From contig NW_026963354.1 of assembly GCF_036588685.1 (NCBI RefSeq), positions 124,001-188,000 of the forward strand: DNA of 64,000 nt, written 5' to 3'. Source of the DNA: Mytilus trossulus. Taxonomy: Eukaryota. Under the pieces are notes generated by a model, which did no database searches, was not told the DNA's origin, and was given only the letters and a program-made list of their open reading frames with translations. The position numbers were made by a program, and so were the translations under genes. Each line of letters starts with the position of its first letter. The first letter of the stretch is position 1. Shown here in pieces: positions 17,255 through 63,118 of this stretch.

Positions 17255-18730
17255 TGCGTGTCATATCCAATCAGTTTATGTTTTGTGTCATGTCCTATCC
17301 GGCATGTAATGATTGAGTGTCATATCCTATCCGTCATGTAATGGTTGTGTTTCATATCCTCTCAGTTTAGGAATTTTGCCATATCCTATTCGACATGTAA
17401 TGAGATTGTGTGTCATATCCTCCTAGTAAAGGAATTGTGTGATATCCTATCCGTCATGTAATGATTGTGTCTCATATCCTCTCAGCAGAGGGATTGTGTC
17501 ACATTCTATTCATCATATATTAATTGTGTATCATATCCTCATTATAGCTAGGAGTTTTGCTGTATTATATCCGGCAAGTAATGATTGTGTGTGATAACCT
17601 CTCAGTAAAGGAATTGTGTCATAACTTATTCGTCATAATAATTGTGTGTCATATCCTACCAGTATAGTAATCGTGTCTTATCATATACTTGTATAAAATA
17701 TTACTAAAATTTTACAGTTTAATTACATTTGAAAATATAAAAATCCGTGATAAAATGATCCTTTCAGTATAGGTAGTGTGTCATATCCTCTCAGTATAGG
17801 TAGTGTGTCATATTCTCTCAGTATAGGTAGTGTGCCATATCCTCTCAGTATAGGTAGTGTGTCATATCCTCTCAGTATAGGCATTTTGTCATATCCTCTC
17901 AGTATAGACATTGTGTCATATCCTCTTACCATAGGCATTGTGTCATATCCTCTCAGTAAAGGTAGTGTGTCATATCCTCTCAGTATAGGCATTATGTCAT
18001 ATCCTCTCAGTATAGGTAGTGTGTCATATCCTCTCAGTATAGGCATTGTGTCATATCCTCTCAGTATAGGTAGTGTGTCATATCCTCTCAGTATGGGTAG
18101 TGTGTCATATCCTCTTAGTATAGACATTTTGTCATATCCTCTTAGTATAGACATTTTGTCATATCCTCTCAGTATAGGTAGTGTGTCATATCCTCTCAGT
18201 ATAGGCATTTTGTCATATCCTCTCAGTATAGACATTGTGTCATATCCTCTTACCATAGGCATTGTGTCATATCCTCTCAGTATAGGTAGTGTGTCATATC
18301 CTCTCAGTATAGGTAGTGTGTCATATCCTCTTACTATAGGCATTGTGTCATATCCTCTTACTATAGGCATTGTGTCATATCCTCTCACTATAGGTAGTGT
18401 GTCATATCCTCTCAGTATAGGTAGAGTTTCATATCCTCTCAGTATAGGCATTTTGTCATATCCTCTCAGTATAGACATTGTGTCATATCCTCTTACTATA
18501 GGCATTGTGTCATATCCTCTTACTATAGGCATTGTGTCATATCCTCTTACTATAGGCATTGTGTCATATCGGCTCTCAGTATAGGCATTGTGTCTGTGTC
18601 ATATGCTCTCAGTATAGACATTATGTCATATCCTCTCAGTATAGGTAGTGTGTCATATCCTTTTAGTATAAACATTGTGTCATATCCTTTCAGTAAAGAC
18701 ATTTGTCATATCCTCTACGTATAAACATTG
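17255..18730. repeat. 27-bp satellite (GTGTCATATCCTCTCAGTATAGGTAGT); degenerate part 17255-17690, homogeneous part 17760-18730, resumes ~19676-19795
   Basis: Tandem copies; the 27-bp period explains the stop-free ORFs on both strands. Confidence 0.92.
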
Positions 18731-18732
18731 TG

Positions 18733-19678
18733 TATTATTCCACTGCATAGCAAAATCAACATTTGATTGGTTGAAACTTTGACACGTGACGTCGAACAAA
18801 ACTTCGTATTCACATCTGAGTATCATATTCCCCTCTGACATGTCGGGACTAAATCGTGCGATTTTATGCGCGGTTTATGTACATAACGTCTTGAACTTTT
18901 TATTTTCTAAATAGCAATAGCAAATATCATTATCGTGTTCAAATTTATTTCAGACGTTGAAACAAAAAGACTAACTAAATAATCAATGTTTATCCGTACT
19001 GTTTATCAATATGTATGTCGTGTTCAGTAATGAAAACAAGCCGAATAAGTCTGAAAAAATGCCGGTATGCAAACTAATATTTGAAGTTCAGATAGTATAC
19101 AAAGCTTAGGCAGTGGAATAAAACATTCATTTTCCTTGGCCTCGGGAGATATTAAGATTTGTTCACCCTCGAAAAATCATATTTCCATCGGGCAGAGCCC
19201 TCGTGAAATATGAATATTCTTGGGTGAACAAATCTTCTTATCGGTCGTCCCTCTGTCTATATTACTCTGTTCAGCTCTTAATATTATTCCGTATCATGTC
19301 GTTGTGACGTCAAATACGTTGACCCGGCCTTAATAACTTTGACCCGGACTTATCAGCGACGTCATAATGTTTGAACCGACGTTAATAACTTTGACCCGAA
19401 CTTATCAAGTCATCTTTTGTGTACAGGCGAAACTAAGAAAACACTTCCGAAACACGCAAATATAGCCCGATAAATCGATTATCAGATTATCTGCATATTG
19501 ATATTGTAAAATATCAGCTGCTTGGCATTATATGAAGACTTTTTGATCTCGTTCGCTACGCTCACTCGACAAAAAGCTTCATATCATGTCTCGCAGCTGA
19601 TATTTTACGATATCAACTTGCAGATGACCTGATAATCGGTACATATCTCCCTCAGGCACGGGAAATAAATGTATAATA
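18733..19678. mobile_element. Nested hairpin-rich non-autonomous elements inserted in the 27-bp satellite
   Basis: ATTCCACTGC/GCAGTGGAAT inverted pair; long hairpins at ~19155-19236 and ~19481-19633; the satellite resumes afterwards. Confidence 0.6.
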
Positions 19679-20973: not shown

Positions 20974-23082
20974 TTAGTCGCTGTAAGTCAGGTCATCTAA
21001 ACTATCAAAGCTGTGTTCTGAGGAACCTACAAAACAAAAAGTAAATACTTATGATTAACAGTATAAACAGTGAATTAGAATAAAAAAAACTTAACACACA
21101 AAATTCGACGAGATGGCACCAATACTTCTTGAAGTTCAGTATTGATAATATAATATAGAGAGGATGTGGTCTAGAGCACTTAAAATGAGACCAAGTGATT
21201 AGTGTCGTACAAAGTGTAGCAAAGATGCGAGTTCGTTTCCCGTCGGGAAAAAAATAGTCAGCATGAAAATCTATCTCTAACACTGTTCCGTTCAAATGAT
21301 CAGACTAACGCAGAAAATAAACATTGTATAAAAAAAATTATTTTTTAAAATGGTTAACTAATATACTTACTGCATTCTTTGGGAACTGGCGAGACCGTGT
21401 TCATCTGCATATTTCTCTTGGATCGTGATCGTGCGTTTTGGAACCAAACTTGTGCAACACGTCTAGTGACTCCAGCTTGGTCGGCAATGGTATCCAAGTC
21501 TTGAGGATCCGGGTTCTGTTCTACATTGAAGTAGGACTGGAAAACATGAATCTGCTCTTCTGTAAAAGCTGTACGCTGTCTCTTGGCTTTACGTTTGCCT
21601 AGACGCTCTGAAAATGTAAATCAATATCGTAGAATGTTTAGGACAAACATTGTTTTGCATTTAATATTTTTTTTCTAAATGTGTTGTAAAACAAATTTTC
21701 AAATAAAAAATTGATTGTAAGTTATACTGAAATGTGTATGATTTTTGTGGAAAGAGGCGCAGACTTTAAAATACAAGTAAATCAAATATATTTGGAAACA
21801 AATCTGCAGGAATATGATGAAAATACAAAAGTTCGCGTTTATAGATATAGGGAGATGTGGTATGAGTGCCAATAAGACTGTGACAACATTACATCCAACT
21901 TATTAATATAAATCATTATAGGTCAAGGTACTGTCTTCAACACGGAGCCTTGACTCACACAGAACAGCAAACTATTTTTTACTTAATAAATAAATGCAAA
22001 AGAATAAGCAGACTTACCGTCACCAAGTTTGTTGCCTTGTAAAACTTGCAGATAGTGGATCTTGCAGTGCAGTCTGTTGTCATGAAGAGCAAACTGTTCC
22101 CCTGTTGAGAGTTGTCTGTTGCAGACACTGCAGCTAAAGCAGTTTAAGTGGTAACAGTTGTCATGTGCTTTCCTGACCCAATCGTCACTGGTGATCGTAA
22201 CATTGCATTTGGAACACTGTGGACCAAATTCCCTGAAAAATAAAAATAATAAAATTAGTATACAAGTTGATTGAAAATCGCGTCGTAATTGTAAACCTTT
22301 TGAATTGATGTGTTTAAGCATTTAAATGTAAATTTATAGGCACAATATGCAAAACTGATGTGTCTTTAAATATATTTCCACTAAATGGGAACTATAAAGA
22401 CGAAAACACGCGTCATCCAAGGTGGTACCGTCTCAATATTTCGAACTTGTTACTCTTTATAGAGATTATTTCTGTATCGATATAAGTGTACTTATATTAT
22501 ACTTACTCTTTTCTGCAGTAGATGTTTCCCCCTCTGACGTAACAGGTGTTGTGGTTGTCCAGTATGGTATGACAATGTGAGCACCGGAGACAGGTCGGAT
22601 GCCAGGACTGGTCATTTAGACGGAGGACGTATTGGTCTTCTACAACTCCATTACAGCCGTAGCAAACATGTACAGTAGCCTGTTAATATAAATAGTAGAA
22701 TAATGAAATACGGAAACATTAGAGTTTTATAAATTAATGATAAAATTTAAATTGAAAACTACTAATTCATTAAGTGGATTGAAATAATATTTATAAAACG
22801 AATTTATTATAAAAAAATATATTACAGCAAATAATATATATTAGTGAAATGAAATAATATGTTACTTTATCTAATTGGTAAAATAAAAAATTCTTGTCGG
22901 TTCTATTTTCAAATTAACACGGAATAGATAATTTGTATATTTACCGTTGGGAATGTGTATTCAAAAACCGAGTCCGGAGATGAACAGTTTTCATCTTCAT
23001 AACTTGTACTGCACTGGAATGTAAAATTACCGGAATCTTCAAACTCAAAGCTGTTGTGTGCAATGTCGGTTAAAGTACCCAT
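20974..23082 (-). CDS. Awh: LIM-homeobox protein, Arrowhead/Lhx6-8-like, copy B (~271 aa); exons 23082-22945, 22679-22507, 22232-22018, 21607-21371, 21026-20974
   Basis: GT-AG introns with the same phases as copy A; two LIM domains; homeodomain KRQRTAFTEEQIHVFQSYFNVEQNPDPQDLDTIADQAGVTRRVAQVWFQNARSRSKR. Confidence 0.9.
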
Positions 23083-32138: not shown

Positions 32139-34288
32139 TCAATTGCTGTAGGTCAGCTCATCTAAACTGTCAAAACTGTGTTCTGGGGAACCTGCAAAAC
32201 AAACAAAATATAAGTTTTAGTATAGTATAAAGAATAATTTTATTATTATAAAAAATAAAAATATAAACTGGATAAATTGTGCAAAGGCCACTTTAAAAGA
32301 AAAGTCTATTTGCGGAGTTGACAATGAAATACTATTTAGCCAGTATAATACAAGATCTATGTGTTCTTAACTTGTATTCAAATGATTCAGATTTATTTGG
32401 TAATATGTATTAAAATGAATCCAATTTACTGTTAATTTCGTATTAAAATGAATCCAATTTATTTGGTAAGACTGTATTAAAATGAATCTAATTTATTTAG
32501 TAATACTGAATTAAAATGAATCCAATTTATTGTTAATACTTACTAGATTCTTTCGAGACAATCGATGCTGGAGATCCCATAGAACTTTGAATATTTCTCT
32601 TGGACCTTGCACGTGCATTTTGGAACCAAACTTGTGCCACACGTCTTGCGACTCCAGCTTGTTCTGCGATGGTATCCAAGTCTTGTGGCTCTGGGTTCTG
32701 TTCCACATCGAAGTAGGATTGAAAGATATGGACCTGATCATCTGTGAAAGCTGTACGCTGTCTCTTGGATTTACGTTTTCCAAGGCGCTCTGAAAAAGAT
32801 GATACATATATTTAGCTTGGATATTTGTCTTCGACTGTGCAGAATTTAGATTATATTCCTTTTAAAAGGTACTAAAATGTTACTTTAATTTATATTATTA
32901 TGATTGGTTGTTAATAAACTGAAAATAATGTTTTAATAAATTTTATCATAATTAAACGCAAATTATAAGGACACCTACCATCGCCAATTCTGTTGCCTTG
33001 TAAAACTTGTAGGTAGTGGATCTTACAGAGAAGTCTGTTGTTATGTAGAGCAAATTGTTCCCCTGTAGAGAGCTGTCTGTTGCAGATGTCACAGTTGAAA
33101 CACGCCAAGTGGTAACAGTTGTCGCGTGCTTTCCTGACCCAGTCGTCACTTCGGATCCCTACGTTGCATTTGGTGCATGGTATGCAAAATTCACTGAAAA
33201 ATACAAAAAAAAAATAATAATTATTAAGTATTAATGGTTTATATATATATATATACACATAAAAAGATATGAAAGGAATGATTATCAAGCTACCTACAAA
33301 ACCAGGTTCAGGCCACTATTTTCTACATATTAGGAGTACCAAGTCAGAAATAGGACAATTATTATCCATTCGTTTGATGTTTTTAGAGTTTGATTTGGAG
33401 ATTTGATTTCCGTTTGATTTATTCACGTATTTGGATGATTTTTTTATGATTTTTTTTTACATGTGACTTCCAAGTATAGAAACTGTTATCATAGTAAGGA
33501 TGGTGAGAACAGTCATATTAGTTTGCAGACTTTGGGATTTCAGGTTTCGTTTATTCAAATATCTTCTTCTTGCATACCCTGTTATGTCTGGTTGTGTCGA
33601 CTTTAAAATAAAATTTTAGGATATAGACACAGATGGATTTCGCTTCATCTAACCAAATTCAGCTAAAGTAACAGAAGAGTTCTTATTGTATACTTACTCT
33701 TTACTGCAGTAGATGTTTCCCCCTCTGACGTAACAGGTTTTGTGGTTGTCCAGTATGGTATGACAATGGGAACACCGGAGACAGGTCGGATGCCAGGACT
33801 GGTCATTTAGACGGAGGACGTACTGATCTTCCACAACTCCATTACAGCCATAGCAAACATGTACAGTAGCCTGTCAATGACAATGAGTAATTTATATTAA
33901 AATTACTTTTAAAACAGAATAGAAATATGCATTTATATGTTGATAATTTGGATAGAAATAATATGAATATAAAAGAAATAATTCAAGAAAACAAAAATAC
34001 CAGAGTTCTCAGTTTCTTCAAGTAACTGTTATATTTACAAATGAAAATTATAATTAAAACTTTAAAATAAATTACACGTCGTTTAACCTTTTTTTTGTAA
34101 ATATTTATAGATTGATAATCAATATAAAATATCAGTATGTTTTCACTTACCGTTGGAAATGTGTATTCAAAAACCGAGTCCGGAGATGAACAGTTTTCAT
34201 CTTCATAACTTGTGCTGCACTGGAACGTAAAATTTCCGGAGTCTTCAAACTCAAAGCTGTTGTGTGTAATGTCGGTGGATATGCCCAT
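32139..34288 (-). CDS. Awh: LIM-homeobox protein, Arrowhead/Lhx6-8-like, copy C (~274 aa); exons 34288-34151, 33870-33698, 33193-32979, 32789-32544, 32191-32139
   Basis: GT-AG introns with the same phases; close paralogue of copy B; homeodomain KRQRTAFTDDQVHIFQSYFDVEQNPEPQDLDTIAEQAGVARRVAQVWFQNARARSKR. Confidence 0.9.
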
Positions 34289-38156: not shown

Positions 38157-38412
38157 AGATGTGGTATAATTGCCAATGAGACAACTATCCACAAAAGACC
38201 AAAATGACACACACATTAACAACTATAGGTCACCATACGGCCTTCAACAATGAGCAAAGCCCATACCGCATAGTCAGCTATTAAAGGCCCCGATAAGACA
38301 ATGTAAAACAATCAAAACGAGAAAACTAACGGCCTCATTTATGTAAAAAAATGAACGAAAAACAAATATGTAACACATAAACAAACGACAACCACTGAAT
38401 TACAGGCTCCTG
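38157..38412 (+). repeat. High-copy interspersed repeat (AGATGTGGTATGATTGCCAATGAGACAAC...), class uncertain
   Basis: Near-identical copy at 63150-63410; partial copies at ~5338, 13396, 21853, 42348, 50590; reverse copies at ~4050-4500, 9155, 20400-20660, 31900, 45135-45390. Confidence 0.85.
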
Positions 38413-38558
38413 AGGTATGCATATGGATTTATTCAGATTAATTTTGCAACATAGTTCATAAAATGTTTCGAGCGACAAAGTTAATAAACAATGGACTAAA
38501 GAGCAAAAACAGGTTTTAAAGCCTCAAGTTTATCACATTGTTTGCATGCTATGTAAAA

Positions 38559-41500
38559 CTATTCGAGTAGACTGAAGTAACCGTTACTTAGTTTACCCGT
38601 TGATTTTTCAGTTATCATCGCGACAATTTCCGTTCCACTCACATTTAGTTTGAGCGTCATGTCTTTTCGTTTAGAAATATCGGTCAATTCAAAATAAAGC
38701 ACTCCTATACAACTACAGCCGTCATCGGTAACATACTGCGGATTCTTGCTTTTGGTTGCATAGAACTCAAAATGAACTGCTGTGTACTCTCTGGCAGCTG
38801 GAACATAATCATGTTCTGGTAAAAATTCTCCAATACTAACAACTTGACCAATTTCAACATGTTTATCAAAAACATTGTCGACAAGACCATTTACTAATTC
38901 TTTTTTCTTGGATTCGAGGTCGACGCCTGGGATAAAAGGTCGTTGCATAGCTATACCGTAGGTGTATTGGGAAACTCGACTTGTGATCATTTCTGGATTG
39001 AATCCAAATAAAACAGCACCTTTCATCACTGCAATATCTGGATTTTTCGGAATAACAATACCGTACTGGTTTCCAAAATGTTTGTAGATGGCATTTGTAA
39101 GAACTGTAGACTTGGAATGGCCGCCAACAATTAAAATTGTCTCAACTCCTTCCAGCTGTTTTTTCTTTAGCAGGTCTTCCATTTCTTCAATGATATGTGT
39201 AAGAGAATAATCAAAGAATTTTCTGAAAAGTTCATTTTTTATCCTCAATTTGTCCTTTTTTAGTGTTATCTGCCCTTTAAACGTGGATTGTTTGACAGTG
39301 TCTTCTAACTCGCAATCTGTAATTGTTTTAAAATGTCGCAACCATGAATATGGCACTCGTATGGTTTGCTTGTCATTTGGTGAGTTCGAGTGATCATCTG
39401 TGAAAGAAGTCTTTGTATGCTCAAAATTATAAAGTAATTGGTAATAATCGGAAGGATTGTTCATTTTGACTTCATTAATGACGTCTCCACCAAGAAGTCT
39501 TACCAAAAAGTTGTAAAACTCTCCATTGACTGTGATTCCACCCCAATGTCCCCCGCACGCTTGGTGAATTTCTTTCAATGTATTCTTTCCAGTAACCTCG
39601 TGTACGGCTATATCTGTTGTTCCTCCTGTCGGAAAATACAAAATGATATGCATAAGTAAATAATGGGAGTAGATACCGAAGGCTGCTGTATTAAAACAAC
39701 TACGTATAACACATATGTAACAAAGACTTATAATGTCTGTATAAATTTTGGGGAGGGGGTGGTGATTATCTAATATAACTAATAAAGGTACTTTGTATAA
39801 TATTCCACCATAATCCCTGAATTGAAAGTTGAATGCAAGTCTACGAATTGAAATATTTTGTATTCTAGGATGCAATAAATGTCTGATAGTTAGTCAGTAG
39901 AATACAAATTTAGAGATCGTAGTTAGAAAATCAAACAATTTATCTCTAGACCAATACTTTTTTTTATTTAAAATGTACTGAAAGACATATTTTTAGTTTT
40001 TGTAAGATCTTGGAATAGTGGTGAGCTTGAGTAAAACAAAACGTTGCAAGAATTAGTGTGTATATATTTATATGACACTGTGTCACGTTAACTCTGAACT
40101 TACCGCCTTGATCTAGAACAACATATTTTGACCCAACCTCCATTGCTGCAATAGTTTTCCCGCCATCATCATCCTCTTTAACACCGACCGGTACTTTACG
40201 ACAGTACATTGATGCAGCTTCTGGTTCCAATGCCAAGGTCAAATTATCACGTGATATACCAGCCTACAAGACAATAATTGGAAGATATATTCATTTGAAA
40301 CATGCATACATGTAGAGGCACGCCTTCCCCACACACTCTACTGACAAACTTGTACGGGTCTAGGACATAAGTGTTATATGTAATTTTTGGAGGCTATGTC
40401 TACTTCAACCTCTGGTATAATTGCTCACGTAAAGAATCTCCTAGTTAGGCCAACAGGCCAATATCGAATTTTAAGTTTGTGATACATGTTTATATTATTT
40501 TCAGATTCAAGGAGGTTGAAGCATTAAAGAAAAGTACGTTAACGGCACAACGGTTTATTAATAACACCAATTATTATAGATGAAAAAAAGTACATAAATA
40601 CTATACAGCATCTGGTTAAACTCCCCTTCTTTCAAAAAAATTATAATTTCGAACACAATCTTCAGCTGACAACTCTTGTAAATTTGTCAATTGAAAATAA
40701 CTGTTTCCTTGATAAACTTTAAGAAGCCCAAGTGACACCCCTTCATAAAAAGAGTGACCCATTATTAAAAACAAATTATAGACCAGTCTTGCCCATATTT
40801 TCTAAAATCTTTGAAAAAATATATGAAATTCAATTAACTGAATACTTTGATAAACTATTCAATCCATTTTTATGTGCATTTAGACGTGGACATGGATGTC
40901 AGACCCACTTCTCAGAGTGTTAGAAGTTTGGCGTGAAGCTCTTGATAAAAAAAAACCAGTACATTGCAGCGGTATTAATGGATCTTTCTAAGGCTTTTGA
41001 CTGCCTGCCTCACAATATCATGCTAGATAAATCATCAGCATATGATTTAACCCCAAATGCAGTTGCTCTTTCAAAGTCCTATTTATCTAACCGAAAACAG
41101 CAAATTGAAGTCAACAAAGTTCTGGGTGGTTGGGCTGACATCCATAAAGGCGTACCGCAGGGTTCTATACTAGGGCCAATGTTGTTTAACATATTTATAA
41201 ATGATATTTTCTTTTTGTTAAAAACGGTAGTTTATATAAATATGTAGATGACAATATTTTATCTTTCTGTACTCCAGATTTCAAATTATTAACTTCAACT
41301 TTGAATCTGATTCAAAAATACTTATTGGGTGGTTCCGGGTGAAAAAAATACAAGCAAATAGTTATCAAAAGTACCAGGATTATAATCCTGACAAATTTCA
41401 AGTTTGGCTGTTGGCAAAAAGACTTTTGAAAACCATCTATACATATTCAAAATTCGAACCTTACATGTGAAAAAACAGTAAAAATATTAGGCATTGAAAT

Positions 41501-44500
41501 TTATATCAGCTCAATCTGTAGGAAGGCATCACAGCAATTAAATGTTTTAAAACGTTTAGGCTAATTTTTGGATAGACTTAGTAAACTTTCTATTTTTCAT
41601 ACTTAGTTCTTATTCTTAGTAATTTTAATTTTTGCCCTTTGGCATGGCATTTTTGCACTCAGAAAAAATCCAAAAAAATAGAAAAGGTGCAGGAAAGAGC
41701 ACTCCGTTTTGTATATGAGGACCTCTTACTTAAAGCTAAGGTGCCATCATTGCAGATCAGACGGATAAGAACAATGGCTCTAGAAACTTTAAAAATTATA
41801 AACAATATAGCTCCTACGTGCCTACACAATTTGGTGAGTGTCAAAAATCTAAATATTCTTTCAGGTATGTAAATATTCTGGAAATTCCACAGGTAAAGTC
41901 AACCCTTTATGGTAAAAAAATCGTTCACATTTGCAGCTGCCACTTTAAGGAACAGCCTTTTCAAACCATTTCAGGACTGAAAATAGTTTTTCACATTTTA
42001 AAAGTCTTGTTCAGTCCTCGAACGGTTTTGAATTTCGCTGTTTGCTTGCAGATAATTTTTAAGCTGCTTATATTTTATGTTGCTTTGGATTGCTCAGGTC
42101 TAGCATGTTTTATTTTAATCTAAAATTGTTGCTTGTTTTTATTGAATGCTATGTATGTGAGGTTCAACTTTGTATTACAGGTTGTTTTAAATGTCAAATT
42201 GGATTGTTTTTATGTTATTGATATGTTTTCATATTCGGTCAAAAGCTCCTTAGAGCTTGTGTTGTATATTTGGACTTTAATGCCGAATCAAAATAATTTT
42301 TCTTATCTTATCTTATCTCGATCAACATGTAGCTGTATAGACATAGGAAGATGTGGTGTGAGTGCCAATGAGACAACTCTCCATCCAGTATATTGGTTTT
42401 TTTTCTAAGACCATGTCAACCTATACCATACGCATTTGACCAGGGAATAAACTACCTGTTTTGCTGCATCACGCATAAACTGTTTGGCTTTAAGATCCCA
42501 GATGGCGGGAACTGTAATCACCCAATGGAAGTCGTCGTTTGTGAATACGGTTCCTTGTTGGTTTTTAGACTGCACGAGATCTTCTATGAAATATTTTATG
42601 ACCTCAGCAAAAACATAAACTGCTTTCATTTTCTTCTTCATTTCTATGTTTTTGACATCCAGTGATTCTTCTAGCATTGTTTCCTTCGTCAACATGTCCT
42701 GTAATAGTAAATCGTGAATGTGTTTTACTTTTCTGTGTCTCTATGGATTGCTGTCTCCATTAGTGACGTAGATTTTCTGTGTCTCTTTGGATATACTATT
42801 ATTTGAAAACGCTTGTCTGAATTTCTTCTCAACCCATCTTTTTTGTTTGTTTGATTACATTTATTAATATCACTGATTCTTTTATTAATACAATTACAAT
42901 GTATATAAAATAGGTGAAGATCTTGCAGTGAGCACATGAATGAAAATGTGATAGATCACTGCTTACAAAAATTAGAATAAATGCACATTCACTTGCAATT
43001 GAAACTGGGAGGTATAGCAAACCAAAAATGTTAGCAGGTGAAAGATACTGCAAACTTTGTAAAGATAAAGTGGAAGATGAAGTTCATTTTCTTTTATATT
43101 GTCCTCTATATTAAGACCTTCGAGAAAAGTTTGATATTTTCAATAACCTTAATAATGATGATGATATTAAATCAACGATTTATTTACTTAAGCCAGTAAA
43201 TCTGGTTGACACCAGACAAATATGTAATTATTTAAGTCAAGCTTTTGAAGTTCGTAATAACAATCTAATGTCAGATGGTCTACCATAAGTATAATACTGT
43301 GTAATACTGTGATATTATATATATAATTAGTACTTGAAATGTTTTCTTTATATTGTATTTGCATAAATTGTCATGTTTAATGTGTTTGTATCTTGGAATA
43401 CGCACTGTATCATATATGCTTTATCCAATAAAATATTTGAATTTGAAAAACAGTTGAAAAAAACTATACAGATAAAAATACCTTTTCTTTGAATAACATC
43501 ATTTTGAAATGTTCAAAGTAGTACCATTTCCTGAAATCGAAATTGTTTGGGTTTGTCCGAAATTTATTCATTGCATCATACCCAAAACAATCAAACTCTT
43601 GATCTGGATTAAACAGAACACATGTCGGAGCTTTATCTGTTATGTGGGATCCTTCATTCCATTCTCGAACCTTCATTTTTGGGTTGTTTGGATTTTTCTT
43701 GTATTCATCCCGAGTACAAACGGCATATCCAGAATAGGTTGTCCCAAAGTCTATAGAAGCGACAAACAGCTTGTTATGTTTTATATCCTACAATAGAGAA
43801 AATGATAAACATCCAATTCGGAGCTGCTTGAGTCGACATAGAAAAGTGATGGAAGAGTTTTATGATTAATTAACGGAACGCTACATGTAATTGGCTAATG
43901 TTTTAGGTGCTTTTTGTCGAGCCTTCGACTTTAGTCGAAAAAGCGAGACTAAGCGATCCTACTTTCCGTCGGCGTCGGCGTCGTCGTCGGCGGCGTCCAC
44001 AAATATTCACTCTGTGGTTAAAGTTTTTGAAATTTTAATAACTTTCTTAAACTATACTGGATTTCTACCAAACTTGGTCAGAAGCTTGTTTATGATCATA
44101 AGATAGTATCCAGAAGTAAATTTTGTAAAAATAAAATTCTATTTTTTCTGTATTTTACTTATAAATGGACTTAGTTTTTTTCTGCGGGGAAACATTACAT
44201 TCACTCTGAGGTTAAAGTTTTTAGAATTTTAATAACTTTCTTAAACTATCCTTGGTTTGTTCCAAACTTGGACAGAAACTTGTTTATGATCATAAGATGG
44301 TATCCAGAAGTAAATTTTGTAAACAAATAAATCCATTTTTTCTGTATTTTACTTTTAAATGGACTTAGTTTTTCTGCGGGAAACATAACATTCACTCTGT
44401 GGAAAAAGTTTTTAAAATTTTAATAACTTTCTTAAACTATCCTGGGTTTGTACTAAACTTGGACAAAAGCTTATTTATGATCATTAGATAGTATCCAGAA

Positions 44501-47500
44501 GTAAATTTTGTAAAAAGACAACTCCATTTTTTCTGTATTTTACTTTTAAATGGACTTAGATTTTCTTCCAGTGAACATTACATACAGTCTGCAGTTAAAG
44601 TTTTCAAAACATTTATTAGATTCATTAATTATTCTAGATTTTTACCAAACTTGGACAGAAGCTTCTTACAATCATAAGATAGTATCAAGAGGAATATTTT
44701 TATTGATTTTTTTCCTCATTTTTGTTTCGCCTGTGATTTACAGCAAAAGTAGGCGAGACACTGGGTTCCGCGGAACCCTTACAAATTTTTTTTGGAAGTA
44801 TATGTTCCTACACATTCTTTGCGTTCCTGATGAAAGTAATGTCAGAATAGGGCTTCGGACGCATTTAAACTAAATATTTTAAAAGTATATTTTTTCATTC
44901 ATTATTTCAATATGTGTTAACTCGGTAATGAAAATTAAGTAAAAAGTCTGATTTATATATCCTTGCAACTATTAATTCTGATATAATTATATATGCATAC
45001 ATTTTTTTCCATTTGATATCTTTAATTACAATTATTTTATCTGATATCGATGCATAACACTGTTTTATATAATGTCAATACTTACATCTGTGTCATATGA
45101 GATCTATACATGATATCTATACTACCGATACATACACCTGTCCTAAGTCAGAAACCTACCGTTCATTGGTTGTCATTTGTCGATGTGGTTCATATGTGTT
45201 TATCGTTTTTTTTTATATAGATTAGACTGTTGGTTTTTCCTGTTGGAATGATTTTTCACTAGTCATTTTTGGGGTTTTTATAGCTTGCTGTTCGGTATGA
45301 GCAAAGGTTGATCTATAATGGTTTATTTTTTCAAGTTGTGACTTGGATGGAGAGTTGTCTAATTGGCACTAATACCACATCTTCTTATACCTATATACTA
45401 GTATGACTCTTCATCAGAAATTTACACTTAGAACTGTTTCATCATTTAACAACAATTTCAATTATACGAATAACGACCATGTCATCTAATATCTATTCAT
45501 ATACTTACATCTGTGTCATCTGATATCTATACTTACAACTGTGTCATCTGATATCTATACTTACATCTGTGTCATCTGATATCTATACTTACAACTGTGT
45601 CATCTGATATCTATACTTACATCTGTGTCATCTGATATCTTAACTCAAATCTGTGTCATCTGATATCTTTACTACCATCTTTGTCATCTAATATCTTTCC
45701 TACCATCTTTGTCATCTAATATCTTTACTAACATCTTTGTCATTTAATATCTTTACTTACATCTGTGTCATCTGATATCTATATTAACAACTGTGTCATC
45801 TGTTATCTTTACTTACATCTTTGTCATCTGATATCTATACTTACATCTGTGTCATCTGTTATCTATACTTACAACTGTGTCATCTGATATATATACTTAC
45901 ATCTGTGTCATCTGTTATCTATACCTACATCTTTGTCATCTGATATATATACTTACATCTGTGTCATCTGTTATCTATACCTACATCTTTGTCATCTGAT
46001 ATCTATACTTACATCTGTGTCATCTGTTATCTATACTAACATCTGTGTCATCTGATATATATACTTACATCTGTGTCATCTGTTATCTTTACTAACATCT
46101 GTGTCATCTGATATCTATACTTACATCTGTGTCATCTGTTATCTATACTTACAACTGTGTCATCTGATATCTAAACTTACATCTGTGTCATCTAATATCT
46201 ATACTTACATCTGTGTCATCTGATATATATACTTACATCTGTGTCATCTGTTATCTATACCTACATCTTTGTCATCTGATATCTATACTTACATCTGTGT
46301 CATCTGTTATCTATACTAACATCTGTGTCATCTGATATATATACTTACATCTGTGTCATCTGTTATCTATACTTACATCTTTGTCATCTGATATCTTTAC
46401 TAACATCTGTGTCATCTGATATTTATACGACCATCTGTGTCATCTGATATCTAAACTTAAATCTGTGTCATCTGATATCTATACTTACAACTGTGTCATC
46501 TGATATCTATACTGACATTTGTGTCATCTCATATCTATACTGACATTTGTGTCATCTGATATCTATACTTACATCTGTGTCATCTGATATCTAAACTTAC
46601 ATCTGTGTCATCTGATATCTATACTAACACCTGTGTCATCTGATATCTATACTTACATCTGTGTCATCTGATATCTATACTTACATCTGTGTCATCTGAT
46701 ATCTATACTAACATCTGTGTCATCTGATATCTATACTAACACCTGTGCCATCTGATATCTATACTAACACCTGTGTCATCTGATATCTATACTGACACCT
46801 GTGTCATCTGATATCTTTACTTACAAATGTGTCATCTGATATTTATACGACCATCTGTGTCATCTGATATCTAAACTTAAATCTGTGTCATCTGATATCT
46901 ATACTTACAACTGTGTCATCTGATATCTATACTTCAATCTGTGTTATCTGATATCTATACTAACACCTGTGTCATCTGATATCTATACTCACATCTGTGT
47001 CATCTGATATCTATACTTACATGTGTGTCATCTCATATCTATACTGACATTTGGGTCATCTGATATATATACTTACATCTGTGTCATCTGATATCTATAC
47101 TTACATCTTTGTCATCTGATATCTATACTAACATCTGTGTCATCTGATATCTATACTAACACCTGTGTCATCTGATATCTATACTTACATCTGTGTCATC
47201 TGATATCTATACTAACAACTGTGTCATCTAATATCTATACTGACACCTGTGTCATCTGATATCTATACTAACATCTGTGTCATCTGATATCTATACTAAC
47301 ACCTGTGTCATCTGATATCTATACTTACATCTGTGTCATCTGATATCTATACTAACATCTGTGTCATCTGATATCTATACTTACATCTGTGTCATCTGAT
47401 ATCGATACTGACACCTGTGTCATCTGATATCTATACTGACACCTGTGTCATCTGATATCTTTTCTTACAAATGTGTCATCTGATATCTATACTTACAACT

Positions 47501-48155
47501 GTGTCATCTGATATCTATATTTACATCTGTGTCATCTGATATATTTTCTTAAATCTGTGTCATCTGATATCTATACTGACAATTGAGTCCTCTGATATCT
47601 ATACTTACATCTGTGTCATCTGATATCTATACTTACAACTGTGTCATCTAATATCTATACTTACATCTGTGTCATCTGATATCTTAACTCAAATCTGTGT
47701 CATCTGATATCTTTACTACCATCTTTGTCATCTAATATCCTTACTACCATCTTTGTCATCTAATATCTATACTAACATCTGTGTCGTCAAATATCTATAC
47801 TCACATCTGTGTCATCTGATATCTATACCTACATCTTTGTCATCTGATATCTATATTGACACCTGTGTCATCTGATATCTATACTTACATCTGTGTCATC
47901 TGATATCTATACTTACATCTGTGTCATCTGATATCTATACTTACATCTGTGTCATATGATATATATACTGACACCTGTGTCATCTGATATCTATACTGAC
48001 ACCTGTGTCATCTGATATCTATACTTACATCTGTGTCATCTGATATCTATACTTACATCTGTGTCATCTGATATCTATACTTACATCTGTGTCATATGAT
48101 ATCTATACTTACATCTGTGTCATCTGATATCTATACTTACATCAGTGTCAGCCAT
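38559..48155 (-). CDS. HSPA12: Heat shock 70 kDa protein 12-like (~596 aa); coding exons 48155-48141, 43787-43482, 42698-42456, 40263-40104, 39625-38559
   Basis: IDFGTTYSGYA, KAPTCVLF, WVITVPAIW..AKQFMRDAA, LALEPEAASMYC, LDQGGGTTDI, GGHWGG and AVMKGAVLFG..R.S.YTYG are HSPA12 hallmarks. All introns are GT-AG and in phase. Start exon MADTD has an in-frame TGA upstream. Confidence 0.88.
40640..42317 (+). mobile_element. Frameshifted LINE (CR1/L2-group) reverse transcriptase, antisense in an HSPA12 intron
   Basis: VTPLHKK..NYRPV.LPIFSKIFEK, MDLSKAFD, GVPQGSILGPMLFNIFIND, YVDD; (TCTTA)n 3' tail. Confidence 0.9.
42870..43446 (+). mobile_element. 5'-truncated LINE 3' end
   Basis: AHSLAIETGRY...RYCKLC...EDEVHFLLYCPLY; AATAAA followed by (TTTGAA)2 tail. 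Confidence 0.75.
43911..44790 (+). mobile_element. Helentron-associated (HINE/DINE-1-like) non-autonomous element
   Basis: T-rich flanks, 5' hairpin TCGACTTTAGTCGA, (GTC/GGC)n microsatellite, ~190-bp internal repeats (44004, 44199, 44390, 44581) and 3' palindrome GGGTTCCGCGGAACCC. Confidence 0.8.
44820..44863 (+). ncRNA. Degenerate type I hammerhead ribozyme relic
   Basis: Stem I UGCGUUC/GGACGCA encloses CUGAUGA...GAAUA..GGGC-UUC; stem II and the GAAA box are damaged. Confidence 0.5.
45478..48140. repeat. 28-bp satellite (ATCTGTGTCATCTGATATCTATACTTAC), ~95 copies, matching the HSPA12 start-exon donor junction
   Basis: The array runs directly into the exon at 48141; the unit matches TGACACTGAT|GTAAGTAT on the minus strand. 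Confidence 0.92.
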
Positions 48156-48539
48156 CCTCGGCTGTCAGTCACCTAAAATAAACCAATGAATTGAATTCTA
48201 AAACAATGAAATATAAAATATATTTAATTTCTTCCAGCTATATAATAAAGCAATTAGATATTCCTATCATTACGTGATAGATGTAGATTTTCCATGCATT
48301 TACTTCTATATATTCTCAATTTACATGTAAATCCTTGATTATATACAACGAACAAACGAACAATTTATTTGAGAATCAAAAAGCTTAAATGAGAAGAATA
48401 AGTACAACCCTAATTATCAAACGTGCCACAAACTAATGTCCTTTCTTTTTGGTTCATTTGGGTAACTGTCTAATCGATGTTATTGTATAACCATTCTTGG
48501 CAGTCATACGAATCAAATACCGTTACTTAATGTAATATC

Positions 48540-57947: not shown

Positions 57948-60900
57948 ATGTTTAAAAACAACAATTTTATTCCAATACTTTTGTTCTTTGCTGTAATAAT
58001 ATTGTTGAAATATCAGAACTACATATCAATGACGGAAATTAGGAATTTAATAAAATGTGTTAAATCCGGTACGTAAAACGGTAATGCATGTTTTATAAGT
58101 GTAATTTTATCTATAACCGAATATAACTCTTTAAAAGTTTTCATTGATTCATTTTTCATAAAAAAGACGAAATGTTGTTACAGTAGACATGACTTATATT
58201 TAGTTGTCTATAAAATAGGAAATGTTGTTACAGTAGACATGACTTATATTTAGTTATCTATAAAATAGGAAATGTTGTTACAGTAGACATGACTTATATT
58301 TAGTTGTCTATAAAATAGGAAATGTTGTTACAGTAGACATGACTTATATTTAGTTGTCTATAAGATAGGAAATGTTGTTACAGTAGACATGACTTATATT
58401 TAGTTGTCTATGAAATAGGAAATGGTGTTACAGTAGACATGACTTATATTTAGTTGTCTATAAAATAGGAAATGTTGTCACAGTAGACATGACTTATATT
58501 TAGTTGTCTATAAAATAGGAAATGTTGTTACAGTAGATATGACTTATATTTAGTTGTCTATAAAATACGAAATGTTGTCACAGTAGACATGTTATATATT
58601 TATAGTTGTCTATAAAAGAGGAAATGTTGTTACAGTAGACATGACTTATATTTAGTTGTCTATATGCCTTAAAATAGGAAATGTTGTTACAGTAGACATG
58701 ACTTATATTTAGTTGTCTATAAAATAGGAAATGTTGTTACAGTAGACATGACTTATATTTAGTTGTCTATGAAATAGGAAATGTTGTTACAGTAGACATG
58801 ACTTATATTTAGTTGTCTATAAAATAGGAAATGTTGTTACAGTAGACATGACTTATATTTAGTTGTCTATAGATAGGAAATGTTGTTACAGTAGACATGA
58901 CTTATATTTAGTTGTCTATAAGATACGAAATGTTGTCACAGTAGACATGTTATATATTTATAGTTGTCTATAAAAGAGGAAATGTTGTTACAGTAGACAT
59001 GACTTATATTTGTTTGTCTATAAAATAGGAAATGTTGTTACAGTAGACATGACTTATATTTAGTTGTCTATAAAATAGGAAATGTTGTTACAGTAGACAT
59101 GACTTATATTTAGTTGTCTATAAAATAGGAAATGTTGTTACAGTAGACATGACTTATATTTAGTTGTCTATGAAATAGGAAATGTTGTTACAGTAGACAT
59201 GACTTATATTTGTTTGTCTATAAAATAGGAAATGTTGTTACAGTAGACATGACTTATATTTAGTTTTCTATAAAATAGGAAATGTTGTTACAGTAGACAT
59301 GACTTATATTTAGTTGTCTATAAAATAGGAAATGTTGTTACAGTAGACATGACTTATATTTAGTTGTCTATAAAATAGGAAATGTTGTTACAGTAGACAT
59401 GACTTATATTTAGTTGTCTATAAAATAGGAAATGTTGTTACAGGAGACTTGACTTATATTTAGTTGTCTATAAAATAGGAAATGTTGTTACAGGAGACAT
59501 GACTTATATTTAGTTGTCTATAAAATAGGAAATGTTGTTACAGTAGACATGACTTATATTTAGTTGTCTATGAAATAGGAAATGTTGTTACAGTAGACAT
59601 GACTTATATTTAGTTGTCTATAAAATAGGAAATGTTGTTACAGTAGACATGACTTATATTTAGTTGTCTATGAAATAGGAAATGTTGTTACAGTAGACAT
59701 GACTTATATTTAGTTGTCTATGAAATAGCAAATGTTGTTACAGTAGACTTGACTTATATTTAGTTGTCTATAAAATAGGAAATGTTGTTACAGTAGACAT
59801 GACTTATATTTAGTTGTCTATGAAATAGGAAATGTTGTTACAGTAGACATGACTTATATTTAGTTGTCTATGAAATAGGAAATGTTGTTACAGTAGACAT
59901 GACTTATATTTAGTTGTCTATGAAATAGGAAATGTTGTTACAGTAGACATGACTTATATTTAGTTGTCTATGAAATAGGAAATGTTGTTACAGTAGACAT
60001 GACTTATGTTTAGTTATCTATTAAATAGGAAATGTTGTTACAGTAGACATGACTAATATTTAGTTGTCTATAGAATAGGAAATGTTGTTACAGTAGACAT
60101 GACTTATTTTTAGTTATCTATAAAATAGGAAATGTTGTTACAGTAGACATGACTTATATTTAGTTGTCTATAAAATAGGAAATGTTGTTACAGGAGACTT
60201 GACTTATATTTAGTTGTCTATAAAATACGAAATGTTGTCACAGTAGATTTGACTTATATTTAGTTGTCTATAAAATAGGAAATGTTGTTACAGTAGACAT
60301 GACTTATATTTAGTTGTCTATGAAATAGGAAATGTTGTTACAGTAGACATGACTTATATTTAGTTGTCTATGAAATAGGAAATGTTGTTACAGTAGACAT
60401 GACTTATGTTTAGTTATCTATTAAATAGGAAATGTTGTTACAGTAGACATGACTTATATTTAGTTGTCTATAGAATAGGAAATGTTGTTACAGTAGACAT
60501 GACTTATATTTAGTTATCTATAAAATAGGAAATGTTGTTACAGTAGACATGACTTATATTTAGTTGTCTATAAAATAGGAAATGTTGTTACAGTAGACAT
60601 GACTTATATTTAGTTGTCTATAAAATAGGAAATGTTGTTACAGTAGATATGACTTATATTTAGTTGTCTATAAAATAGGAAATGTTGTTACAGTAGACAT
60701 GACTTATATTTAGTTGTCTATGAAATAGGAAATGTTGTTACAGTAGACATGACTTATATTTAGTTGTCTATAAGATAGGAAATGTTGTTACAGTAGACAT
60801 GACTTATATTTAGTTGTCTATAAAATAGGAAATGTTGTTACAGTAGACATGACTTATATTTAGTTGTCTATAAAATAGGAAATGTTGTTACAGTAGACAT

Positions 60901-63118
60901 GACTTATATTTAGTTGTCTATAAAATAGGAAATGTTGTTACAGTAGACATGACTTATATTTAGTTGTCTATAAAATAGGAAATGTTGTTACAGTAGACAT
61001 GACTTATACTTAGTTGTCTATGAAATAGGAAATGTTGTCACAGTAGATTTGACTTATATTTAGTTGTCTATAAAATAGGAAATGTTGTTACAGTAGACAT
61101 GACTTATATTTAGTTGTCTATAAAATAGGAAATGTTGTTACAGTAGACATGACTTATATTTAGTTGTCTATAAGATAGGAAATGTTGTTACAGTAGACAT
61201 GACTTATATTTAGTTGTCTATAAAATAGGAAATGTTGTTACAGTAGACATGACTTATATTTAGTTGTCTATAAAATAGGAAATGTTGTTACAGTAGACAT
61301 GACTTATATTTAGTTGTCTATATGCCTTAAAATAGGAAACGTGTTACAGTAGACATGACTTATATTTAGTTGTCTATATGCCTTCAAATAGGAAATGTTG
61401 TCACAGTAGACATGACTTATATTTAGTTGTCTATAAAATAGGAAATGTTGTTACAGTAGACATGACTTATATTTAGTTGTCTATATGTCTTAAAATAGTA
61501 AATGTTGTTACAGTAGACATGACTTATATTTATTTGTCTATAAAATAGGAAATAGTGTTACAGTAGATATGACTTATATTTAGTTGTCTATAAAATAGGA
61601 AATGTTGTTACAGTAGACATGACTTATATTTAGTTGTCTATAAAATAGGAAATGTTGTTACAGTAGACATGACTTATATTTAGTTGTCTATAAAATAGGA
61701 AATGTTGTTACAGTAGACATGACTTATATTTAGTTGTCTATGAAATAGGAAATGTTGTTACAGGAGACTTGACTTATATTTAGTTGTCTATAAAATAGGA
61801 AATGTTGTTACAGTAGATATGACTTATATTTAGTTGTCTATAAAATAGGAAATGTTGTTACAGTAGACATGACTTATATTTAGTTGTCTATAAAATAGGA
61901 AATGTTGTTACAGTAGACATGACTTATATTTAGTTGTCTATAAAATAGGAAATGTTGTTACAGTAGACATGACTTATATTTAGTTGTCTATGAAATAGGA
62001 AATGTTGTTACAGTAGACATGACTTATATTTAGTTGTCTATGAAATAGGAAATGTTGTTACAGTAGACATGACTTATATTTAGTTGTCTATAAAATAGGA
62101 AATGTTGTTACAGTAGACATGACTTATATTTTGTTGTCTATAAAATAGGAAATGTTGTTACAGTAGACATGACTTATATTTAGTTGTCTATAAAATAGGA
62201 AATGTTGTTACAGTAGACATGACTTATATTTAGTTGTCTATAAAATAGGAAATGTTGTTACAGTAGATATGACTTATATTTAGTTGTCTATAAAATAGGA
62301 AATGTTGTTACAGTAGACATGACTTATATTTAGTTGTCTATAAAATAGGAAATGTTGTTACAGTAGACATGACTTATATGTGCTTATATTATCCTCGTCC
62401 TTTGGGTTCTGGTGAATATTTGTCCCAATTACAATCATATAACATTTCAAATACGCTTGAAGTACTCAATCTGTCTTTATACGACTTACACCTTGTTCAC
62501 TTTGATATCAGCTGCAGCATTTCATAAAATATTTCTAAACAACAAATTAATTTAACGCAGACAAAATCACGACCTCTTGCAATGTCTAATGTAGATAAGA
62601 AATGAAAATAAGATAAGTAACTGCAACTTAGCTATATATTTTTTTTGATAACAAAAAATAATTTTAAAATGAACTTTTTGCACAACTGATATAGAGGATG
62701 AGAATAATACAAATAATGTTAAAGAGCTTTGTAATTTAGATTAAATTTTTATATCTTTTAAGCTTACAATCGATATAAGTCAAAATAATGTTTATGTATT
62801 AAGCAGATTTATAATAACGACACCTTCTGTTATATTGTCACTTAGTTTGTGTGTATATATGTAATATTGATGTGAATGTTATTCAAAGGCTATAATATAT
62901 AGTTTGTATAATAATACTTTATTTCCGTAAGCAAATACAGCTTATTGGATTTACACAATATGAATATCCAATAGATAATATATGTATAGACTATGATGAT
63001 AATAAAGATACATTTTATTATTCATATTAACTTTTTCAGGAAAAAGGGTGACAATATCAAAACCAAACTCGTTAGATTCCACCAATCAACAGGATAAAGC
63101 ATTTGAAGAATTGACAAC
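57948..63118 (+). CDS. 5' end of an unidentified signal-anchor/secreted protein gene; exons 57948-58068 and 63040-63118, continuing beyond the window
   Basis: MFKNNNFIPILLFFAVIILLKYQNYISMTEIRNLIKCVKS G|GTACGT (phase 1) joins TTTTTCAG|exon|GTAAGT, whose only open frame is the phase-compatible one: GKRVTISKPNSLDSTNQQDKAFEELT. Confidence 0.5.
58160..62378. repeat. 50-bp satellite (AAATGTTGTTACAGTAGACATGACTTATATTTAGTTGTCTATAAAATAGG), ~84 copies
   Basis: Highly homogeneous tandem array. Confidence 0.95.

Follow-up and report, generated by a model that had tools for sequence, protein, structure and literature searches.

Tandem repeats that reiterate a splice donor have precedents in human and lancelet genes. 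In amphioxus, 'mirage' minisatellites occur in Adh3, troponin C, the globins BflGb6 and BflGb9, and PGBD5, and they are reported to leave splicing undisturbed, to evolve in concert inside and to exclude the units at their edges (PMC3087553, PMC3902484). The variable number tandem repeat (VNTR) in intron 7 of human F7, with 5-9 copies of a 37-bp unit, has a first unit that spans the exon 7 boundary; as described, only the most upstream donor is used, and the downstream sites become functional on loss of the first without otherwise competing with it, with LMNB2 and PDGF using only the real site and IFI6 and CBS using two pseudo-sites besides it (PMC1557585). The VNTR in intron 18 of human ABCA7 has a 25-bp unit in about 12-427 copies and begins at the donor; a single retained unit is described as giving a premature stop subject to nonsense-mediated decay (NMD), at ~2% and independently of length, whereas skipping of the next exon does change with array length (PMC5954066). 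Here, we describe a locus of similar build in 64,000 nucleotides of DNA from the mussel Mytilus trossulus (contig NW_026963354.1, positions 124,001 to 188,000; "the window" hereafter), where a 28-nt minisatellite begins inside the short first coding exon of an HSPA12-like gene. We read it, with a probability of about 0.72, as a donor-reiterating, 'mirage'-type minisatellite that was born by local duplication of the exon-intron junction, is spliced mainly at its first donor and is carried as a tolerated passenger. An earlier, sequence-only reading of this DNA had offered the array as a plausible route by which a satellite is born; the route is not new, for such arrays already bear the name 'mirage', and six or more are described from humans.

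The array and the exon in which it begins

The array was called with Tandem Repeats Finder, and its units were then delimited in register, counting from the donor (48140, minus strand). Its parts are as follows:

45500..48150, minus: homogeneous 28-nt minisatellite (Tandem Repeats Finder: period 28, 94.7 copies, 89% matches, 0% indels)
45394..45465, minus: about three strongly decayed units, the best at 21/28 (weak when taken alone, 2/300 shuffles scoring as high)
45132..45396, minus: high-copy interspersed repeat inserted in the old end of the array, with 8 other matches in the window
~44947..45141, minus: old decayed tail of about six to seven units (local score 148 against a shuffle maximum of 44, 0/300)

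Divided in this way, the array comprises 94 complete units followed by part of a 95th, each made of 10 terminal exon bases and 18 initial intron bases, in agreement with the ~95 tandem copies of the donor region, at a 28-nt period, claimed by the sequence-only reading. The main block reported there is real, while its end had been drawn too early: the array runs on into decayed units at 45465-45394 and ~45141-44947. At the other end, the start at 48150 lies 10 nt inside the exon, where nine of ten exon bases match the unit and the sole mismatch is a T at -4, a position held by A in all 93 later full junctions. As had been noted, many units retain GTAAGT (45 of 94 over their first six bases) and others read GTTAGT (17) or GTCAGT (10), with 13 further forms making up the last 22. 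GT itself is kept in 83/95 junctions. Identity over the whole interval from -3 to +8 extends to 32/95 junctions, the real donor included, so the 31 later ones that match it bear out the description of the repeats as U1-complementary decoy donors; units 2-5 are undamaged and place four perfect decoys directly behind the exon. Inner units mostly carry 0-4 differences per 28 nt. Block duplications are also visible within the array (45508-48140), as near-identical five-unit runs at lags 10 and 73, which indicates copying between the start and the end of the array, in one direction or the other.

The gene in which the array sits is laid out on the same strand:

48141..48172, minus: start-codon exon of the HSPA12-like gene (5' edge putative, support for the 3' edge)
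48133..48143, minus: authentic donor GAT/GTAAGTAT, first intron base 48140
43482..43787, minus: exon B (DIKH...KEK), acceptor used in RNA contigs
42456..42698, minus: exon C (gene model and contig joints)
40104..40263, minus: exon D (gene model and contig joints)
38559..39625, minus: exon E, up to the stop codon (gene model and contig joint)

The ATG stands at 48155-48153, and the frame that encodes MADTD continues into exon B (43787) in phase 0. From coding start 48155, the five exons give an intact 596-codon frame whose translation is identical to M. trossulus XP_063419328.1, in keeping with the earlier claim that MADTD is encoded in phase with the next exon. The product is a full-length Hsp70-family frame (precomputed Pfam match, PF00012), nearest to HSPA12 proteins and ordinary apart from its first five residues, which vary among species. 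Five or six residues precede DIKH in the orthologues: M. galloprovincialis has MADTDDIKH, M. californianus MSDKVDIKH and M. coruscus MMDDTVDIKH, with MDDTVDIKH in a second M. coruscus sequence (P0079, Logan contig); a paralogue, 72% identical, reads MARKVEIKH. Two RefSeq entries in M. galloprovincialis give the same protein, possibly with different 5' ends. By annotation and conservation, the short first coding exon is genuine and older than these Mytilus species. As for its proposed length of 32 nt, annotation and orthologues uphold the 3' edge, whereas the 5' edge at 48172 is placed by acceptor-like sequence alone; another such site, 25 nt farther upstream, would instead start the exon at 48197.

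Birth from the exon-intron junction, as the sequence-only reading had it, is supported by an array that begins inside a conserved, annotated exon, by the absence of decayed units in the remaining exon and 450 nt upstream (score 30; 25/300 shuffles as high) and by the absence of a second array of the unit in the window. The converse, that the exon derives from a decayed unit, was rejected, there being no likeness upstream of -10. The old units are collectively 75-77% identical to the consensus, so the array combines edge decay with inner homogeneity, as reported for mirages (PMC3087553); we assign it to that type on a first unit spanning the exon-intron boundary of a real exon, a repeated splice signal, and inner homogenisation with edge exclusion. 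It would have arisen by local tandem duplication of a 28-nt stretch over the exon end and donor, probably through slippage or unequal exchange at the junction, and later homogenisation within the array may have left the far edge behind. Many other arrays, unrelated to this one and with periods of 20-50 nt, lie in the window (Tandem Repeats Finder), which suggests that arrays arise readily here.

A dispersed or transposon-borne satellite could instead have landed at the exon, supplying or mimicking its donor. Transposon-borne dispersed arrays are reported from oysters (PMC7492417), and one non-tandem, palindromic 23/28 match to the mussel unit (L019:1142-1170) lies directly at the end of a common interspersed repeat. 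A 27-mer array at 17758-18733 also resembles the 28-mer weakly (p 0.02), as one of 18 comparisons; kinship with other arrays of the window was rejected, since this value does not survive 18 tests. Against such an arrival, the 5' flank of the array is a coding exon kept in the orthologues and the paralogue, and the repeat at 45396-45132 interrupts the old units rather than enclosing the array, which is thus not inside a mobile element (another copy of this interspersed repeat, at 42336-42387, reaches summed contig depths of up to about 100,000). Within the 64 kb, no match outside the array and its tail reaches 22/28. An exact 27-mer of the unit, found 17 times in the window, had no match in metagenome contigs holding roughly 1 Mb of mussel-like DNA, a sample that excludes only a very abundant family; its size follows from a control, a motif taken from a frequent mussel repeat, which occurs twice per 64 kb in the window and gave 28 matches in the contigs. 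We therefore regard a dispersed origin as very unlikely. The donor of exon D (40106-40079, minus) was considered as a copy of the unit and set aside, for it matches at 19/28 in register, and with ~14 such matches expected per window chance suffices.

Probable splicing at the first donor and the decoys behind it

Contigs from four public runs (X1, X4, X9 and X16) were aligned to 38300-43990, a region that ends short of the array. The three downstream introns are joined in three, two and three of the four runs, respectively. Spliced contigs match from exactly 43787 in X9 (RNA on record; record 25), with 134 letters beyond it upstream, and in X4 (RNA by guess; record 20), with 72, so the acceptor at 43787 is confirmed by RNA contigs in two of the four runs; the unbroken upstream letters further indicate that one upstream form dominates in both. 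A search for short N-terminal fragments returned four proteins, none of which crosses the junction between the first exon and exon B of the HSPA12-like gene.

What use of a decoy would produce can be read from the frame. Reading through the first donor gives MADTDVSIDIR and then TGA, the seventh codon after the donor, just as the sequence-only reading had predicted, and donors 2-5, if used, would yield the same 11-residue open reading frame and stop. Among the 94 decoys, 85 have no open in-frame ATG upstream; the other nine have one 30-39 nt upstream, in each case behind the 11-codon frame and other ATGs. Downstream junctions would mark decoy-spliced RNA for decay. Stops near a start codon often escape NMD. 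Either way, degraded or not, decoy-spliced RNA would make no full protein. Micro-exons within the array were considered and rejected: its 267 YAG sites have an upstream pyrimidine share of at most 0.47, against 0.65-0.76 at five real acceptors.

From such products, a regulatory role can be built, in which splicing to the decoys, and with it premature termination and decay, would follow array length or stress and thereby adjust HSPA12 output, or in which the array loads U1 on the intron. The 31 identical decoys and the 11-residue frame behind donors 2-5 count in its favour, and no RNA structure that clearly masks the decoys was found among predicted folds (unpaired probability 0.53 at the real site against a mean of 0.41 for 35 identical 9-mers; fold z -1.5). 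There is precedent as well in ABCA7, whose donor-bearing VNTR is reported to alter splicing with length via skipping of the next exon (PMC5954066), and HSPA12 genes of M. edulis are reported to respond to heat and salinity, at the level of the family rather than of the gene studied here (PMC8774603). On the other hand, the downstream sites of F7 are described as not competing (PMC1557585), second-donor use in ABCA7 as staying near 2% whatever the length (PMC5954066), and amphioxus mirages as leaving splicing undisturbed (PMC3087553, PMC3902484). The donor bases in the mussel array, moreover, are not conserved and are, if anything, more variable than the rest. The regulatory role is thus unsupported here, precedent would by analogy oppose it, and we give it little credence.

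For the passenger interpretation that we prefer, the first site would be chosen, as it is for human F7, by oriented scanning or by exon definition. Slight leakage to donors 2-5 is expected; it would give the 11-residue peptide and no HSPA12 protein, and would amount to a minor loss rather than a tuned switch.

Variation within the units and at the exon end

If decoy donors are mildly harmful, selection might have favoured the spread of units whose donors are weakened. Differences among units do concentrate where U1 pairs: 117/172 fall in the 11 U1-pairing positions (-3 to +8) of the 28, the highest count of the 28 rotations (permutation p 0.013), and the excess persists without two palindrome-completing alleles (p 0.016). 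Compared with the real donor, U1 pairing is weaker in 51 of the 93 later junctions, equal in 38 and slightly better in four. Units are not independent, however, and when changes are counted by parsimony the figure falls to 34/62 (p 0.038), with 3/28 rotations as high; a narrower window from -3 to +6, the second of two tried, gives p 0.13, and a count of distinct alleles (17/33 against 17/51) gives a Fisher p of 0.076. The signal is also largely that of two positions, -2 and +3, and all 13 units with G at -2 carry a pyrimidine at +3 too; since G at -2 with C at +3 completes a 6-bp inverted repeat, the cause could be mutational. In addition, the decoys nearest the exon, which would be expected to matter most, are intact. 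Selection for weakened donors is therefore unlikely in our estimate. Palindrome completion was likewise rejected as a general cause of the common variants, with a mean stem of 2.4 for common alleles against 2.8 for unseen ones and a fit for -2G/+3C only.

A second possibility, an addition to local birth and passenger status rather than a replacement for them, is that the exon end co-evolves with the array: the exon end is itself the first unit, and in-register exchange could bring the codons of an inner unit into it, with donor and frame preserved. Such exchange may explain the N-terminal differences MADTD, MDDTV and MSDKV among Mytilus species. Within the stretch of the unit that comes from the exon, three variants and no others are present 10 times or more, namely A at -5 (12 copies), G at -2 (13) and T at -2 (13), and two of them encode states found in other species: Lys4, as in M. 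californianus and the paralogue, and Val5, as in both of these and M. coruscus. The chance of both matches among three variants is 0.007 under a uniform model and 0.019 when weighted by the observed spectrum, for a test chosen after seeing the data. Codon 2 of the unit is GAT, giving Asp as in M. coruscus, where the exon has GCT. Decay of 23-25% suggests that the array is old (an estimate of age rather than a date), and T at -2, the Val-type base, occupies 4/8, 5/10 and 5/8 of the old units under three gap settings against a background of 9-12%.

Several observations run counter to exchange. The exon T at -4 appears in 0/93 later units, so there has been no recent replacement, and Ser2 of M. 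californianus has no counterpart in the array. Five of six well-aligned old units share an A at -7 that fits the Asp codon of no orthologue; this shared base implies that the old units form a related sub-lineage, which brings the count of T at -2 near to a single event. N-termini change fast in any case, and a protein tree (10 rows) leaves M. californianus, M. coruscus and the M. edulis group unresolved and does not show repeated switching between Lys and Thr. That the array might predate the Mytilus split, rewrite the coding end of its own exon and have supplied the Asp, Thr, Lys and Val differences at the HSPA12 N-terminus is, judged from these alignments, a tentative proposal, and we hold both it and the co-evolution on which it builds to be rather improbable. 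Were it true, amino-acid change at exon ends would have a hidden origin in junction-spanning minisatellites; no description of exon-array exchange that changes a protein sequence was found in the open-access literature, which was covered by titles and the starts of abstracts, with most subscription journals outside.

Returning to local birth followed by mainly first-donor splicing, several points weigh against it. First-donor use is likely on the basis of RefSeq models and orthologue sequences rather than of junction reads, and contigs lose rare forms. Across the acceptor at 43787, X1 contributes only an unspliced contig of low depth, and X16 runs through intron edges in a DNA-like manner. IFI6 and CBS are reported to use two pseudo-sites too, so a leak can be real (PMC1557585), and decoy units 2-5 are intact. 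The excess of changes at U1-pairing positions, borderline as it is, would mean that the array is not fully neutral, and locus specificity was checked only over the window and over sparsely sampled mussel DNA.

Neighbourhood and known systems of the same build

Three tandem LIM-homeobox (LHX6/8-like) genes adjoin the HSPA12-like gene, at about 3300-34300 on the minus strand, and LHX6_8 proteins of M. edulis on contigs matching in size those of the HSPA12 orthologue and paralogue suggest that the neighbourhood has been kept. One LHX6/8 copy has a 34-nt repeat in five copies (32540-32373, minus) that begins at +4 behind the donor of the homeodomain exon (GT at 32543); it is a second donor-adjacent array within the 64 kb, one that copies only part of the signal, with edges set by protein alignment, and the sister copy has its donor at 21370 without an array. 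A 191-nt repeat of 3.6 copies (44005-44690), followed by a short GC-rich end, shares its intron with the 28-nt array and presumably resembles non-autonomous Helentron-type elements. The 27-nt array includes an older part with a 54-60 nt period (17285-18733 in all) and carries a minus-strand open frame of 291 codons, and a 50-nt array of 83.8 copies with 94% matches (58162-62379) lies upstream of the HSPA12-like gene.

No published case from a mussel or other bivalve was found in the open-access literature, searched to the same extent as above. The architecture itself has been described before, in human and lancelet genes, and the mussel array is an ordinary new example of it. What it adds in detail is an old decayed end split by an interspersed repeat, the borderline excess at U1 positions, and array variants that match the Lys and Val of other species. 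It also offers a natural test, for the single base at -4 (T at the first donor, A in every copy) separates first-donor from decoy use in short reads.

Amphioxus mirages, as reported, share with the mussel array tandem copies laid over an exon-intron boundary, splice signals that are often kept, and an invertebrate gene as host. They differ in that the present host is a mollusc, and in dimensions: the mussel array has 94 copies of a 28-nt unit, the globins and PGBD5 of amphioxus have 3-7 copies of a unit 60-160 nt long, and the units of amphioxus Adh3 measure 10-72 nt (PMC3087553, PMC3902484). ABCA7 resembles it in being long and starting at the donor, and in that splicing at its second donor leaves one extra unit in the RNA, with a premature stop; the ABCA7 unit, however, starts at GT, with no exon bases described, whereas that of the mussel includes 10 (PMC5954066). 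In F7, as in the mussel, the first unit consists of the last exon bases and the donor, and later units form identical pseudo-sites; the mussel array has ~10 times as many copies, its donor is a full GTAAGTAT match, and its exon is very short and contains the start codon (PMC1557585). Existing mussel RNA-seq could show whether first-site choice of the F7 type holds in a mollusc, where the first donor has ~30 identical rivals.

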